Positions 2,848-42,038 of a DNA stretch of 45,842 bases are shown here, in pieces. Below the pieces are notes generated by a model. It had not been told where the DNA came from and did not search any database. It saw only the letters and a list, made by a program, of their open reading frames with translations. The DNA comes from a virus. The translations under genes were made by a program, and so were the position numbers. Location: the IMG/VR virus record IMGVR_UViG_3300049639_000145; one strand, written 5' to 3'. The first letter of the stretch is position 1. The number at the start of each line of letters is the position of its first letter.

Positions 2848-3053
2848 AACCTGCGGAACTTGTCTCTCATACTCAGAAGTTGACGGGCTGTATCCCACTA
2901 TTGAAATGGCGGGGATTAGCCCTTACTTGCTCCTAAACAGGAATAATTTATCTAAGAAGGCGAGAAGACCCCGTTCTTTAGGGCGGGGATGAAAGCCGTC
3001 AACTTCTACATAATTCTTTTCTACAATTTATCATTTAGCTTATAAATAACCAC

Positions 3054-3081
3054 TTTACAGAAAGTTATAAATATCTGTAAA
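3054..3081 (+). promoter_or_regulatory. Archaeal TATA promoter (AAAGTTATAAATA) flanked by 8-bp inverted repeat TTTACAGA/TCTGTAAA
   Basis: Sequence match to BRE/TATA; the inverted repeat is directly visible. Confidence 0.6.
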
Positions 3082-3186
3082 ACCATATAGTATAATGTCA
3101 GTGGTACACTGATTTGAGCTTGTCTGACTCCGGAGGTTACGAAGGAGGATGAAGCAAGAAATGATATGAACCTGTATCGGTTACCC

Positions 3187-3298
3187 TGTGCGGATGATAG
3201 ATACAGGGAAATTATCATAGTACCTGATGTCCCACATTAGAGACTTTGCGCCTGTCAGGTGTGCGGATGATAGATACAGGGAAATTATCATAGTACCT
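3187..3298 (+). repeat. Two identical 39-bp direct repeats (3187-3225, 3260-3298) around a 34-bp spacer; CRISPR-like mini-array
   Basis: Repeat TGTGCGGATGATAGATACAGGGAAATTATCATAGTACCT; spacer GATGTCCCACATTAGAGACTTTGCGCCTGTCAGG. The duplication is certain; a CRISPR function is not established. Confidence 0.85.
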
Positions 3299-3321
3299 AA
3301 TAAAATCGGAGAACTAACGAA

Positions 3322-4440
3322 ATGTTAAGAGCCTATAAATATCGAATATACCCAAATAAAACTCAAAAAGAACAAATTGAAAAGCAGTTTGGGGCGTGTA
3401 GGTTTGTCTATAATTGGGCTTTAGAACAGAAAATAAAGTATTATGAAACTGAGAAAAAGACACTTTCATGTTTTACAATTACAAAGCATCTAGCCATTCT
3501 CAAAAAAACAGAAGGGTATGAATGGTTACAAGATGGAAATTCACAAGCCTTGCAGATGTCAATTCGTAATTTAGATAACGCATTTAAAAGGTTTTTCAGG
3601 GAAAAAAAAGGATTCCCAAAATTCAAATCAAAAAAGAATCCAGTTCAATCTTTTCAAATTCCTCAACATTATACAGTAGACTTTGAACGAAATAGAGTGA
3701 AACTTCCTAAAATCGGACTGGTTAAAGCTTCCTTTTCAAGAGAGTTTGAAGGAACTTGTAAAACTGCAACAATTTCAAGATCCACTACTCACAAATATTA
3801 TATTTCTATTTTAGTCGACGATGGTAAAGACATCCCAATTAAAGAGCCGTTCAATGATAATACCACAGTCGGGGTAGATGTTGGTATCGAGTGTTTTGCA
3901 GTATTATCAACCGGTGAAAAGTTCGATAATCCTAAATATTATAAGAATTCACTTCAAAAGCTGAAAGTCCTTTCTAAAAGGCTCAGCCGAAAACAGAAAG
4001 GCTCTAACAACTGGAAAAAGGCTAAACTCCGATTATCAAAACTGCATGAGAAAATTAGTAATCAGCGTAACGATTTTCATCATAAACTTTCAAAGAAACT
4101 AATAAGCGAGAACCAAGCTGTAGCATTAGAAACTCTTAAAGTTTGTAACATGGTGAAAAATAAGAACCTTGCTCAGTCTATATATGATGCTGGATGGTCT
4201 GCTTTTGTTAAAAAACTTGAATATAAAGCGGAATGGTACGGTAAAACTATATTGAGAATAGGGCAGTTTGAACCATCTTCTAAGTTTTGTAATGTATGCG
4301 GCTATCATAATAAGGAATTGACTTTAGCAGTTCGAGAATGGACTTGTCCGTCTTGTAATACTTCTCATGATAGAGATGTTAATGCGGCAATTAACATTAA
4401 GAAGTTTTCACTTCAAGATCAGAACTTAGTAGGCGTTTAA
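3322..4440 (+). CDS. tnpB: TnpB (IS605 OrfB) RNA-guided nuclease
   Basis: N-terminal HTH_OrfB (RAYKYRIYP), RuvC-I GVDVG, RuvC-II ALETL, zinc ribbon CNVC...CPSC, RuvC-III DRDVNAA. Confidence 0.95.
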   Translation: MLRAYKYRIYPNKTQKEQIEKQFGACRFVYNWALEQKIKYYETEKKTLSCFTITKHLAILKKTEGYEWLQDGNSQALQMSIRNLDNAFKRFFREKKGFPKFKSKKNPVQSFQIPQHYTVDFERNRVKLPKIGLVKASFSREFEGTCKTATISRSTTHKYYISILVDDGKDIPIKEPFNDNTTVGVDVGIECFAVLSTGEKFDNPKYYKNSLQKLKVLSKRLSRKQKGSNNWKKAKLRLSKLHEKISNQRNDFHHKLSKKLISENQAVALETLKVCNMVKNKNLAQSIYDAGWSAFVKKLEYKAEWYGKTILRIGQFEPSSKFCNVCGYHNKELTLAVREWTCPSCNTSHDRDVNAAINIKKFSLQDQNLVGV

Positions 4441-4567
4441 AAAAAGAAATTTGCACCGTAGGAACTACGGGGTGAGCTTGTTGACTTATGAACGATGGTT
4501 CAAGGAATGAAACAAGAATCCCCTTCGTTTACGGAGGGGTAGTTCAACCCAAAGTGTTTTATACTTC
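4380..4567 (+). ncRNA. Putative omega/reRNA of tnpB1, with the guide taken from the right flank (CCCAAAGTGTTTTATACTTC); 5' end approximate
   Basis: Overlaps the tnpB 3' end, has typical stems (ACCGTAGGAACTACGGG; GAGCTTG...CAAGAATCCCC) and ends at the right-end hairpin plus TTCAA. Confidence 0.6.
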
Positions 4568-20535: not shown

Positions 20536-20714
20536 CATGGTAGACATGGTTGTATTATCTCAAATTGCAACCGGAGCATTTGCACTGCTCGCTGTTGCTA
20601 GTACTAGAATAGCTGTCAAATACAAACAGGAGATCGAGCAGGTCACAAAACTCAAAGATCTTGCCCTATATTCACGTCAACTACTCGCGACTGAAGTCGC
20701 AAGCTTGGATATCA

Positions 20715-21878
20715 TTAAGTATCCGTATGGATGGTTGACAAACATCCCTGAGATTCCAAGCTATACCTGAAATCTCGTGTTCTATGTTCAATATTTCTAG
20801 AAGCATTCAAGTCTGCATTCATCTCATAACCGCAAGCTTCACAGTGAAATCTTAATCCTTTTCTATTATTTTTGGAGATGTGATTACACCGGTTGCAAGT
20901 TTGAGAGGTATATTCAGGATTTACATATTCTACTAGAATTCCAGCTTGTTTAGCTTTATATTCAATGAAACTCTGTAATTGTCTGAATGCCCAACTGTTA
21001 TGTAAGTATCTCTGTTTTTTATGGAGTTTTCCATTAGTTCTGTCTCTTATTTCAGTTAAATCTTCTAATCCAATTACAGACACGTTTTCCTGAACTGCAA
21101 ACTTAACAATAGCTTTAGAAATGCAATGGTTAACATCTTTCATAAAACGTTGCTCTTTACCTGCTAAACGTTTTAACACTCTTTTAGCTGATAAAGTTCC
21201 CTTAGATTGTAACCTCGCTCTCATTTTAGAATAGATATTTCTCTTGTTTTTAATTTCTCCACCTGCAAAAAACTTACATTTTTTATCGGTTGTAGAAGCT
21301 ACAGCTAGATAATTAATCCCTACATCTACACCCATGAAATTAGATGCTTGTTCTATAGCAGGTTCTTCAATTTCCTGAGAAATTGTAAGATGAAAATAAT
21401 ATTCTCCATTATCATGTTTTACAACTTTAGAAGCTGCAAACTTCCAGGGTTTTTTAAAGTATTGTTTCGCATAATCATAATTCTGGATTTTGTACGTTTT
21501 TCTTCCAGAACTATATGTAGTTATGCTAACAGAGTCTTCTGTGATTCTATAATCTCTCTTATAAGAAAGAGTCATAGACGATGGTGTGTATTGTAGCTTC
21601 TGCCATTTAGTCTTCTTACACTTAATTTGTTCTAATAATGTTTTGTAAGATCCTGCTACTTGTCTAGGAATGTTACAGCTTACCTGAGATTTTAATCCTA
21701 TAGATTCTCTCAAATGACTGTATACAAGTCCTTGTAATTTCCTTGCAGGAATTACTTTCCCGTTCTGAAAGACTACTTCTGAAACATAGTTCATCCCTTC
21801 AGAATATTTCTGCATGGTTTCCACTAAGTCATTATCAACATCTATAATTTTCAGTTGTATTGTTTTAGTGGATTCCAT
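20715..21878 (-). CDS. tnpB: TnpB (IS1341/Cas12f-like clade) RNA-guided nuclease
   Basis: RuvC GVDVG, IGLEDL, TSQTCNRC...CEAC zinc ribbon, NADLNAS. Confidence 0.92.
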   Translation of the reverse strand: MESTKTIQLKIIDVDNDLVETMQKYSEGMNYVSEVVFQNGKVIPARKLQGLVYSHLRESIGLKSQVSCNIPRQVAGSYKTLLEQIKCKKTKWQKLQYTPSSMTLSYKRDYRITEDSVSITTYSSGRKTYKIQNYDYAKQYFKKPWKFAASKVVKHDNGEYYFHLTISQEIEEPAIEQASNFMGVDVGINYLAVASTTDKKCKFFAGGEIKNKRNIYSKMRARLQSKGTLSAKRVLKRLAGKEQRFMKDVNHCISKAIVKFAVQENVSVIGLEDLTEIRDRTNGKLHKKQRYLHNSWAFRQLQSFIEYKAKQAGILVEYVNPEYTSQTCNRCNHISKNNRKGLRFHCEACGYEMNADLNASRNIEHRTRDFRYSLESQGCLSTIHTDT

Positions 21879-21888
21879 AGTATATTAT

Positions 21889-21923
21889 ATTCACACGAAA
21901 GTATTTATAGCTTTCGTGTGAAT
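21889..21923 (-). promoter_or_regulatory. tnpB2 TATA box (AAAGCTATAAATA) within a perfect 13-bp inverted repeat ATTCACACGAAAG/CTTTCGTGTGAAT
   Basis: Directly visible, just upstream of the ATG. Confidence 0.7.
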
Positions 21924-22126
21924 TTCATAGTAGCAGGGATTGTTAAGATTACGCATTCCTCCCGCAGCTAAAGCAACGGGAATCCTGCTTAAAGGTCTTT
22001 GAATCCGAGGAAGTAAAAGAGATCCTTTCCGAATATGGGGTGAGTGAATACTCTGCTGAAGTTGAACCGCCCTCTCACAGATTCTGAGAAGGACGAAATT
22101 ATAAAAATTGTTAGAAAAGTGTTAGT

Positions 22127-40370: not shown

Positions 40371-40550
40371 ATGGAAGAAGCTCACAGGGAACGACTTAAA
40401 AAGAGGTTCTCGAAACAACCAGAAGTAGACTCGATTCACCGCCAGCAATGCAGACAGGTACTTTTATGCGACTACGAAAACAACCTGCCTGTTAATACGC
40501 AGGCTATGAAGAAGGAAGAATTACGGGCTAAATGGTGGAATGTCCTGTGA
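40371..40550 (+). CDS. 59-aa hypothetical protein; frame is open upstream through a CKSRNI...CVYCG zinc-ribbon-like segment
   Basis: Hand-translated; start is uncertain. Confidence 0.4.
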   Translation: MEEAHRERLKKRFSKQPEVDSIHRQQCRQVLLCDYENNLPVNTQAMKKEELRAKWWNVL

Positions 40551-41224
40551 AACAAACGAACTTACAAACCTTCGGGAAGCCTCCACTCCCACGAGGTTAC
40601 TCTCCTTCCCACATTCTCACGTATCGAAGATGTGAATATAAATTCCTGTTGGCATTTATTTATAAAATCAAAGTGGAAACTAAATTTCAGCCACTATTAA
40701 CAGGGTCTTCGATACATGAAGACATTTCAAAGGGCATTTTTACATCCGAAGCCCCAGAAAGACAAAAAATGTTAAATGTTGCACAGGAATTCCTTTCAGA
40801 AATGCCGGCAAATCCGATATTTGAAACGACTTACGAAGACCCAAATAACCCAGGAATATTCAGAGGGATGATTTTTGGAAAACCGTTCATAGGAATATTT
40901 GATGCTCATTGGGTCGAAGAAAGACAGGGCGTAGACTGGAAAGCAAGCAAGCATAACGAAAAATACGACAGTGATTATGAGATTCAGGCGTACATTCTGA
41001 ATGAATTATTCAAGCAGAAGTACAAACACAACTTGAGGAAGTTCACATTTGTTTTTCTGAAGGATGGTTTCAGATATGAAGCCCAGTCTATATACAATGG
41101 AGCAGTACGAAACAGGACTGAAAAAAAGATTAAAAGTGCTCTAGATGGCATCAGTAATTACGAGTTCAAAAAGAAAAGATCATACGCTTGCCAATGGTGT
41201 GAGTGCAAGGGGCTTTGTATATGA
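40532..41224 (+). CDS. Cas4-like PD-(D/E)XK nuclease
   Basis: SPS....Y..C, GSSIH, G.FDA, VDWK, Q...Y and C-terminal CQWC.....C Fe-S-type cysteines. Confidence 0.8.
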   Translation: MVECPVKQTNLQTFGKPPLPRGYSPSHILTYRRCEYKFLLAFIYKIKVETKFQPLLTGSSIHEDISKGIFTSEAPERQKMLNVAQEFLSEMPANPIFETTYEDPNNPGIFRGMIFGKPFIGIFDAHWVEERQGVDWKASKHNEKYDSDYEIQAYILNELFKQKYKHNLRKFTFVFLKDGFRYEAQSIYNGAVRNRTEKKIKSALDGISNYEFKKKRSYACQWCECKGLCI

Positions 41225-41309
41225 CTGAGGAAGGGCCGTGTTTCCGATGCGGAGAATTGACCGATTTTCACAGCTACCAATCGGAGAGGGGCGAAACTAA
41301 AACATATTA

Positions 41310-42038
41310 TTGCTGCGAAAAATGCGAAGACGAGCTGAGAAAATGAATCCCATAGATAAAGAAATGTACCTGATGTACGCAGAAACAGACGAATACCAAG
41401 AAGCCGTAAGGCAACTTGAGGAGAACGTTTCTAAGGCGTTTTCTGAGTACTCTAATCCTTACGTTGCCTATTCAGGAGGGAAGGACTCTCTTGTAATGTC
41501 TCATGCAGTCTTGCAGGAAAACATAGACACTTTAATTTTTCATTGGGATTATGGGCCGTATTACATGCCTAGAGAACTGGAAAAAGAAGTAATTGATATG
41601 GCGTATAAGATCGGAGCTAAGAAAATTAGAGTAGATAGTACAGAAGTATATAAGCAGAAAAAGAGAGAGGCTATAAGTGTTTTAGGCAGGATGCTCTATG
41701 GTAGAGTACTACCAGGTTTGAAAGCAGAAGGTTACGATTTATCCTTTGTTGGACTTCGAGCTCAGGAAGGATGTAAGCGAGCCAGAAGAGTTTCAGATCT
41801 CTTTGAAAATGATTCAGTACTACCCAATTGTTTTCCAGTCCGTCACATGAAAGCTAGGGATATATGGGCTTATATCGTCAGTAATAATCTACCTTACTGC
41901 TCACATTATGATAAATATGCTTCACTTGTAGGATACGAAGAGGTAAGATTCTGTACTTTCTTTGATAAAGAGTTTGATAAGTACGGGAATTCTAATTTAG
42001 ATGGCGTTTTAATGACTCAATTTAAAAATGTTTTTTAA
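41310..42038 (+). CDS. PAPS-reductase-family (PP-loop adenylyltransferase) protein
   Basis: VAYSGGKDS, GLRAQE...RA, P.....RDIWAYI..N.LPY..HY. Confidence 0.85.
   Translation: MLRKMRRRAEKMNPIDKEMYLMYAETDEYQEAVRQLEENVSKAFSEYSNPYVAYSGGKDSLVMSHAVLQENIDTLIFHWDYGPYYMPRELEKEVIDMAYKIGAKKIRVDSTEVYKQKKREAISVLGRMLYGRVLPGLKAEGYDLSFVGLRAQEGCKRARRVSDLFENDSVLPNCFPVRHMKARDIWAYIVSNNLPYCSHYDKYASLVGYEEVRFCTFFDKEFDKYGNSNLDGVLMTQFKNVF

Follow-up and report, generated by a model that had tools for sequence, protein, structure and literature searches.

The window analysed here is a 45,842-nt stretch of DNA from the IMG/VR virus record IMGVR_UViG_3300049639_000145, and all coordinates count from its first letter. 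It contains an element of the IS605 family whose gene, tnpB, is preceded by a structured leader and a short CRISPR-like array. In the following, relatives of this locus and other individual loci are denoted by L labels and genomes by G labels. The components of the element and its left flank are as follows.

2947-2951 (+): left flank of the insertion sequence (IS), TTTAT, the putative transposon-associated motif (TAM); homology between contigs begins right after it.
2952-3035 (+): left end (LE), with a subterminal hairpin at 2969-2988 like the terminal hairpin of the right end (RE) and omegaRNA; found in all relatives; it shows a weak partial match to the covariance model R1 described below.
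3040-3073 (+): archaeal promoter region as read from the sequence, with two TTATAAATA boxes at 3040-3048 and 3065-3073.
3092-3186 (+): omegaRNA-derived, tracrRNA-like scaffold, with hairpin 1 (TCAGTG/CACTGA), a long-range helix (GCTTG/CAAGC) around hairpin 3, and an anti-repeat at 3161-3178.
3188-3224 (+): repeat 1, 37 nt, in which TATCAT and AGTACC take the place of the 3' strand of the omegaRNA terminal hairpin and of the omegaRNA tail; it can pair with the anti-repeat.
3225-3260 (+): spacer, 35-36 nt (3226-3260 when counted from 39-mers), at the position of an omegaRNA guide.
3261-3297 (+): repeat 2, 37 nt, exactly equal to repeat 1.
3298-3321 (+): junction to tnpB, with a Shine-Dalgarno-like GGAG at 3308-3311 and without a T-run terminator; kept in all relatives.
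3322-4440 (+): tnpB, encoding 372 aa with the Pfam domains HTH_OrfB_IS605, OrfB_IS605 and Cas12f1-like_TNB.
4450-4546 (+): canonical 3' omegaRNA scaffold, ending at the RE (...GGGGTAGTTCA); the flank from 4547 on is its guide.

Homology between contigs extends from TCTAAGAAGGCGAG (window 2952) to GGGGTAGTTCA (window 4546), and the sequence outside these limits is unrelated, with at least six left contexts and at least seven right contexts. The whole leader-array-tnpB unit lies inside this IS605-like element, and the differing flanks show that it moves or has moved. The pentamer at the left flank is TTTAT in the window, L006 and L008, TTTTT in L007 and L017, and ATTAT in L032. The features of IS200/IS605 elements are present, namely subterminal hairpins in LE and RE and a 3' omegaRNA that ends at the RE. 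The only open reading frame (ORF) between 2952 and 4546 is tnpB, and no TnpA (Y1) transposase was found in the element, which is tnpB-only (IS1341-type) and would need TnpA in trans. The locus is an IS605-family tnpB-only transposon (about 2952-4546) in head-tailed viruses of Methanosarcina-like methanogens.

The encoded protein aligns end to end with ISDra2 TnpB (PDB 8h1j, E=3e-85), and its C-terminal part is matched by LaTranC (9jfo, E=8e-41). Its identity to TnpBs of the ordinary IS200/IS605 type, from Methanosarcina, Methanohalophilus and related genera, is 65-69%. The RuvC residues D/E/D and the CxxC...CxxC zinc finger are intact in the window protein and in all eleven relatives checked; judged by its residues, the nuclease should be catalytically intact.

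Repeat finding within the window gives two identical 39-mers at 3187-3225 and 3260-3298, and the spacer between them (3226-3260) occurs once in the whole window. Both points had been made in a preliminary description of this DNA, which was based on the letters and their ORFs. The pair can be stretched to 42 nt with one mismatch (3187-3228 and 3260-3301), and comparison with relatives shows that the true repeat unit is 37 nt long (GTGCGG...AGTACC, 3188-3224 and 3261-3297), usually followed by a T. Taken by itself, a window with just two repeats and one spacer would agree with a simple local duplication in a structured leader, a caveat raised at that time. The relatives decide this question. An exact search of IMG/VR with the repeat core returned three viral contigs, a gapped repeat pattern returned seven metagenome contigs, and more relatives were added through protein-based look-ups. 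The same leader and repeat lie upstream of an orthologous tnpB in 15 related viral or metagenomic contigs, which have one to six repeats and 21 distinct spacers; the repeats are 37 nt and the spacers 33-38 nt long, the unit period is 71-76 nt, and the repeat always stands between the conserved leader and the start of tnpB.

The arrays differ in size from contig to contig. The window has two repeats and one spacer; L007 also has two repeats, L008 and L032 have three each, L017 has three and a truncated fourth, L006 and L015 have four each, L021 has at least four, and L019 has six. Four repeats of a diverged type are found in L063 and L064. The smallest arrays consist of one full repeat, one spacer and a truncated terminal repeat (L009, L016 and L062) or of one full repeat and one spacer without such a remnant (L069). 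Between L006 and L019, identity is 100% throughout tnpB and for 1.5 kb to either side of it, and the difference between them is two extra leader-proximal units in L019, which holds the three spacers of L006 and the trailer unit. This trailer unit is common to L006, L019 and L021; L021 shares nothing more with them, and its leader-side spacers differ. Gain at the leader end together with a shared trailer has the form of the classical signature of polar spacer turnover. Arrays of one to six repeats with unrelated spacers, some ending in a truncated repeat and some sharing spacers in a nested way, go beyond a single duplication, and the array variation together with the comparison of L006 and L019 excludes it as the explanation; we give it next to no probability. 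The proposal that the repeat would recur with different spacers beside related tnpB genes holds, and the copy number varies as well: the relatives show neither a uniform single repeat nor an invariant spacer, and protospacers exist, as described below.

One further array has an unusual insert. In L018 (57-686), 630 bp lie between two repeats at the leader-proximal side of an otherwise L006-type array. A small ORF and a long inverted repeat lie in the insert, which in reverse orientation also matches the neighbouring spacer Sa at 26/35. It could be an aberrant "spacer" of giant size that came from a targeted element, or it could have arisen by recombination.

The leader itself is related to the guide RNA of the transposon. 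We built a covariance model (R1) from eight 3' omegaRNAs, with no leaders among them, and ran it unfiltered over the whole window. Compensatory changes occur at 12 of the 26 pairs in the consensus fold of these eight sequences. The first match of R1 is the cognate omegaRNA (4450-4546, 108 bits), so the normal 3' omegaRNA assumed by the preliminary description is indeed retained. Its second match covers 3092-3224, that is, the leader together with repeat 1, over the full model length (28.9 bits, E=3.6e-5), and the next one in the window is at chance level (E=0.16). The leaders of all seven relatives tested (L070, L011, L009, L016, L069, L063 and L062) also match, with 22-41 bits and E values from 8e-8 to 2e-3. 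The leader is a homologue of omegaRNA, and these scores support this statistically. In the R1 alignment of the leader, the long-range helix is preserved, ATGATA[46 nt]TATCAT forms the terminal hairpin, and the tail AGTACC replaces UAGUUCA, so the spacer starts exactly at the omegaRNA guide start. A scan of the window with Rfam at gathering thresholds reported one tRNA and nothing else.

The anti-repeat, ATGATATGAACCTGTATC at 3161-3178, pairs with the repeat as originally noticed. The predicted duplex has -22.1 kcal/mol, compared with -10.1 +/- 2.7 for 1000 shuffled repeats, none of which is as good (0/1000), and 0.1% of the 29-mers of the window pair with the anti-repeat as well as the repeat does. 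The fold of the leader and repeat 1, including this duplex, is kept in six variants. Two other pairings that had been pointed out fared less well. A long-range GTCAG...CTGAC hairpin does not belong to the conserved fold, in which the 5' hairpin is TCAGTG-gta-CACTGA; and the pairing of the spacer ends with the repeat edges (ACCTGA/TCAGGT) is peculiar to this one spacer and missing from the other 20.

The second of the TTATAAATA boxes lies about 25 nt upstream of the 5' end of the scaffold, and the promoter is positionally homologous to that of chromosomal relatives, in which the ATG of tnpB stands where the leader now starts. We infer that transcription of the leader starts from this promoter. 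Since the junction at 3298-3321 has no T-run terminator, the array and tnpB are probably co-transcribed on one transcript. Basically, the element seems to have gained a second guide-RNA module between its promoter and its start codon, consisting of a diverged omegaRNA copy and a CRISPR-like array.

Stages without this module, or with parts of it, are found among close relatives. In a maximum-likelihood tree of 33 TnpBs, all 14 leader-bearing TnpBs (14/14) form one clade (support 96/95) nested among IS TnpBs of Methanosarcinaceae, which points to a single origin of the leader. The chromosomal elements L022 and L023 from a Methanosarcina-like genome, with 67% identity, have the same element ends; their promoter abuts the ATG, and there is neither a leader scaffold nor a repeat. 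The sister lineage L082 likewise lacks a leader. Basal in the leader clade are L011 and L071, each of them with a scaffold, one guide-like segment and no repeats. L070 (2344-3700) sits at the viral site that the window element occupies, with a PKD gene upstream and a shared gene downstream. Its 5' scaffold is compact (40.7 bits with R1); it also has a short hairpin (ATGATAC/GTGTCAT), a tail AGTCC and a single guide-like segment of 48 nt, for which no match was found in 59 genomes of the host genus. Its TnpB is intact, and neither a 3' omegaRNA nor an RE was found in it; the 5' RNA is therefore the sole candidate guide in that virus.

For targets, we compared the arrays with 151 genomes from the family to which G002 belongs and with 59 genomes, 2.3-5.8 Mb in size, from the genus of G002, G009 and G144. 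The matched spacers, one at 36/36 and six at 71-91%, hit proviruses and mobile elements of the genus Methanosarcina. The matches have the following properties.

L021_s2: 36/36 in G009, about 130 nt from tandem tRNA-Met genes; 5' flank ACAGT.
L019_s2: 31/34 in G156 and 29/34 in G144, in a HerA/AAA_10 ATPase gene; 5' flank TTTCT (G156) and TTTTT (G144).
L017_s1: 31/36 in G009, in an ORF adjoining the provirus terminase gene terL; 5' flank ATTAT.
Sc: 25/35 ungapped in G175 (91% over a gapped 33 nt by BLAST), among neighbouring ORFs without a Pfam family; 5' flank TTTAT.
L063_S3: 30/36 in four genomes, in an LTD-domain gene; 5' flank TTTAT (G124) and TTCAT (the other three).
Sa: 26/35 in the insert of L018; 5' flank TTCGT.

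For four of the seven matched spacers, the 5' flank is one of the pentamers seen at the left flank of the IS (TTTAT, TTTTT or ATTAT); note that most of these matches are homologues and that the perfect match has ACAGT. The background frequency of the three pentamers is 1.1%, and the binomial probability of four in seven is 5e-7, or 4e-5 when counted conservatively. In addition, all seven have T at position -1 (p=3e-4). That the protospacer flank equals the target motif of the transposon itself is a specific prediction of use by TnpB. Inspection of the flanks, as suggested at the outset, yields protospacers or near-protospacers in mobile elements of the host genus with the motif of the transposon in four of seven cases.

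Other searches returned less. An exact search of IMG/VR with the window spacer and L019_s2 gave no match, the L019 and L021 arrays had no credible match among GenBank phages, and the L008 array gave noise only against host genomes, its spacer 1 being A-rich and of low complexity. The only match of the window spacer in the 151 host-family genomes (gapped 29/33, with the 3' half of the spacer and the repeat start, antisense to a GTPase gene) is probably due to chance and is not taken as a protospacer. The window segment in question, 3243-3274, includes the first 14 nt of repeat 2 and resembles L049:1501-1532, antisense in a conserved GTPase gene of three genomes. A likeness to the repeat start is also seen in the 3' flank of the L017_s1 protospacer homologue. 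As for L021_s2, its protospacer region L040:1640-1890 (G009:C63) has two tandem tRNA-Met copies about 130 nt off, an arrangement that may be the attachment site of an integrative element.

A leader in the 5' untranslated region (UTR) of tnpB could also have a regulatory role. TnpB processes its own mRNA, the scaffold is more conserved than the gene behind it (99-100% versus 86-96%), and scaffold-only forms exist in L011, L070 and L071. The leader might then be a cis-regulatory decoy, by which TnpB binds its own 5' UTR and affects translation or mRNA processing, and the repeat-spacer units would be non-guide by-products of slippage, recombination or a host integrase acting on a fortuitous substrate. 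However, a decoy leaves unexplained the 21 unique spacers in a tight length range, their polar turnover, the matches to mobile elements and the enrichment of TAM-like flanks. It also predicts the opposite of what is seen in L070, which retains the 5' RNA and loses the 3' omegaRNA. We regard the decoy as unlikely.

The question of where new spacers come from leads to the host. The preliminary description had seen no cas1 or cas2, and neither Cas1 nor Cas2 was detected among the 26 window ORFs scanned, where the one related finding is a PD-(D/E)XK (Cas4-like) nuclease at 40532-41224. Many type V-U, V-F and TranC loci are likewise without Cas1-Cas2 genes. Genomes of the host genus encode Cas1, and the control for Methanosarcina acetivorans was positive. 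By analogy with what has been proposed for the Cas12r phages discussed below, host Cas1-Cas2 probably supplies adaptation. The PD-(D/E)XK nuclease of the window is a candidate helper in spacer capture. Together with a PAPS-reductase-like protein, it occupies 40532-42038, between terL and the next large gene.

Host machinery might do more than this. In another explanation, the locus is a virus-borne mini-CRISPR array that exploits class 1 (type I-B/III) systems of the host for both adaptation and interference, and the adjacency of tnpB is incidental. In the host genus, array repeats are 37 nt long (GTTTCAATCC...) and recur every 72-74 nt, equal to the 37 nt and 71-76 nt of the viral arrays, which together with the Cas1 of the host genus and with no cas1 or cas2 among the 26 window ORFs scanned speaks for such a parasitic array. 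The sequences, however, are unrelated: the viral repeat agrees with host-genus repeats at 17-20 of 37 positions (46-54%), too few for Cas6 or effectors to be shared, its last 8 nt (ATAGTACC) are unlike the host handle ATTGAAAC, and none of the genomes searched (151 from the family, 59 from the genus and 185,579 species genomes) yielded a host array that uses the viral repeat. A likeness to the reverse complement of the host repeat, which favors host use and to which we return below, is not shared by the L063 repeat variant. Moreover, in every case an omegaRNA-like scaffold is joined to the array and both lie within the tnpB element, also at new insertion sites, and the protospacer flanks of four of the seven matched spacers equal the target motif of the transposon. 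Interference through host effectors is unlikely, and the combined explanation with incidental tnpB is quite improbable. The host-genus arrays themselves were seen, for example, at L080 and L081 (G144), where they lie beside cas1 with three 37-nt repeat variants and dozens of spacers.

We prefer the reading in which the array serves the neighbouring nuclease, and infer the following course of transcription, RNA processing, TnpB loading, cleavage and spacer integration. Transcription from the TATA box would give a natural single-guide RNA composed of scaffold, anti-repeat, repeat 1 and spacer, in which repeat 1 completes the terminal hairpin of the diverged scaffold and the spacer takes the place of the omegaRNA guide. 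Further repeat-spacer units and then the tnpB mRNA would follow on the same transcript. The later repeats could form their own ATGATA/TATCAT hairpin or, alternatively, pair with the anti-repeat in trans, like a tracrRNA. TnpB would load the array guides and cut DNA with a 5' motif of the TTTAT/TTTTT type and a protospacer in rival proviruses and mobile elements, while the 3' omegaRNA would keep serving transposon homing. New spacers would join at the leader end, probably by means of host Cas1-Cas2.

The idea of a natural fused scaffold-repeat-spacer RNA, acting as a second guide beside the omegaRNA, had been put forward from the window by itself, and it is now supported by the recurrence of the array, the homology of the leader and the targets. 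Several observations nevertheless weigh against use of the array by TnpB. The sole perfect protospacer (L021_s2 in G009) is flanked by ACAGT and not by a T-rich motif, the remaining matches are homologues of 71-91% identity and not exact targets, and the window spacer has no convincing protospacer in an exact IMG/VR search or in the 151 host-family genomes. Spacers of 33-38 nt exceed the approximately 16-20 nt needed by a TnpB guide. The exact LE boundary, and hence the TAM, comes just from the comparison of flanks. Covariation between anti-repeat and repeat is weak, with mostly one-sided changes and a C:C break in L063, and double compensatory changes in the fold of the leader and repeat 1 are confined to hairpin 3. 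Finally, the viral repeat equals the reverse complement of the host repeat at 20 of 37 positions in register (P ~0.002), and some use of the array by host proteins is conceivable. With these points included, we hold it fairly probable that the array provides the adjacent TnpB with extra guides. The explanation as a whole, a TnpB with a second, array-fed guide module that attacks rival elements with spacers fed by the host, seems to us the probable one.

Several known systems resemble this locus. TranC systems are said to have been described by Jin et al. in Cell in 2025. According to two sources, the name stands for a transposon-CRISPR intermediate, and the evolution of TnpB to Cas12 is framed as "functional RNA splitting" (PMC13565253; bioRxiv 10.64898/2026.03.27.714800). 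As described there, TranC also has a TnpB-sized, IS605-derived RuvC nuclease with a short CRISPR array, a scaffold derived from omegaRNA or right-end element RNA (reRNA), no adaptation genes, and many viral examples. Compared with these descriptions, the present nuclease is an ordinary-looking TnpB in an element with LE, RE, a 3' omegaRNA and several insertion sites; the array is upstream, in the 5' leader and within the transposon; and a second scaffold copy is joined in cis to repeat 1, in an RNA that is still unsplit. The locus does have a guide scaffold derived from omegaRNA with a repeat-complementary anti-repeat, as expected of a type V or TranC-like system, with the weak covariation of the duplex mentioned above. 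The label "TnpB-to-Cas12 intermediate" given to it at first corresponds to a class that has been described, TranC, and the idea is not new in kind.

The Cas12r-CRISPR systems of Thermus Lalka phages (bioRxiv 10.64898/2026.04.20.719267) share with the present one a phage-borne TnpB-like nuclease, a short array and the absence of adaptation genes. Their spacers are added on the nuclease-proximal side with a trailer spacer common to relatives, their repeats are as long as those of the host arrays, from which host adaptation was proposed, and the spacers target integrative elements near tRNA genes. Cas12r differs in that it has 564 aa, an array downstream and outside a transposon, no need for a tracrRNA, and experimental tests; the present protein has 372 aa, its array is upstream and scaffold-fused, and its host is archaeal. 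Extrachromosomal elements of Methanoperedens (bioRxiv 10.1101/2023.08.02.551345) are, like the present viruses, mobile elements of Methanosarcinales with TnpB beside population-variable arrays whose spacers target other mobile elements, and spacer-directed TnpB was proposed by the authors. Compared by description, they differ in that TnpB and the arrays are no more than two genes apart, on circular elements that are unclassified, and neither an omegaRNA-derived leader nor embedding in an IS is described. A canonical IS200/IS605 element such as ISDra2 agrees with the present one in the protein, in the LE and RE hairpins, in the 3' omegaRNA with a guide from the right flank and in the T-rich left flank; it differs in its short or missing leader and in its single guide, set by the insertion site, the state shown by L022, L023 and L082. 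Mini-CRISPR arrays of Sulfolobales viruses reportedly have repeats that match host arrays and use host effectors (Medvedeva et al. in 2019). They also have few spacers and no cas genes, occur in archaeal viruses and presumably serve conflicts between mobile elements; the present repeat, in contrast, does not belong to the host and is joined to a guide scaffold of TnpB.

A virus-borne TnpB fed by a CRISPR array is an already known kind of system. What is new relative to the descriptions cited here is the upstream array inside a still two-ended IS with its omegaRNA, the scaffold fused to repeat 1, the unenlarged nuclease of 372 aa, and the stages kept in close relatives. According to a census of 2023 (Altae-Tran et al., PMC10691335), conserved associations of Cas12 with arrays are almost always downstream of the nuclease gene. 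The system poses the questions of whether an unmodified 372-aa TnpB can use two classes of guides, whether a class 1 adaptation module of the host can feed a foreign TnpB-linked array, and what archaeal viruses gain in conflicts with other mobile elements. It also offers a candidate nuclease of small size that would have a short T-rich target motif and could receive its guides in the form of an array.

A bolder reading, which we offer tentatively, is that the element is a mobile CRISPR at the first step of the origin of type V systems. A still-transposing IS605 element with one unmodified TnpB would then have two guide channels, the 3' omegaRNA for homing and the unsplit 5' array against rivals. 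The upstream duplicate of the omegaRNA, its terminal hairpin grown to the 37-nt repeat length of the host, would have become a substrate of host Cas1-Cas2. If so, a transposon gained adaptive immunity before RNA splitting, protein enlargement or loss of mobility, and living viruses keep a graded series from no leader, through a scaffold with one fixed guide and then one repeat, to up to six repeats.

Some minor observations concern the element and its surroundings. The element is mosaic: the tnpB genes of the window and L006 are 96% identical over 1079 nt and are followed by differing 3' ends and omegaRNA types, the omegaRNA of L008 is a chimera of these two types, and LE and leader are 99-100% identical among contigs whose tnpB differs by up to 14%. 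A second tnpB on the minus strand of the window (20715-21878) was considered and set aside as outside this system, being 28% identical and without such a leader; it encodes 387 aa in an element at 20676-21989 (-) that has no leader array and has its own LE and RE. Lastly, a 21-nt stretch equal to the repeat core (GGATGATAGATACAGGGAAAT) is found in host-family genomes at L047:1493-1521 (G031:C131) and in G129:C22, within a gene that by eye resembles an IS256-type transposase in translation. This may be chance, or it could be a hint to the source of the repeat interior.

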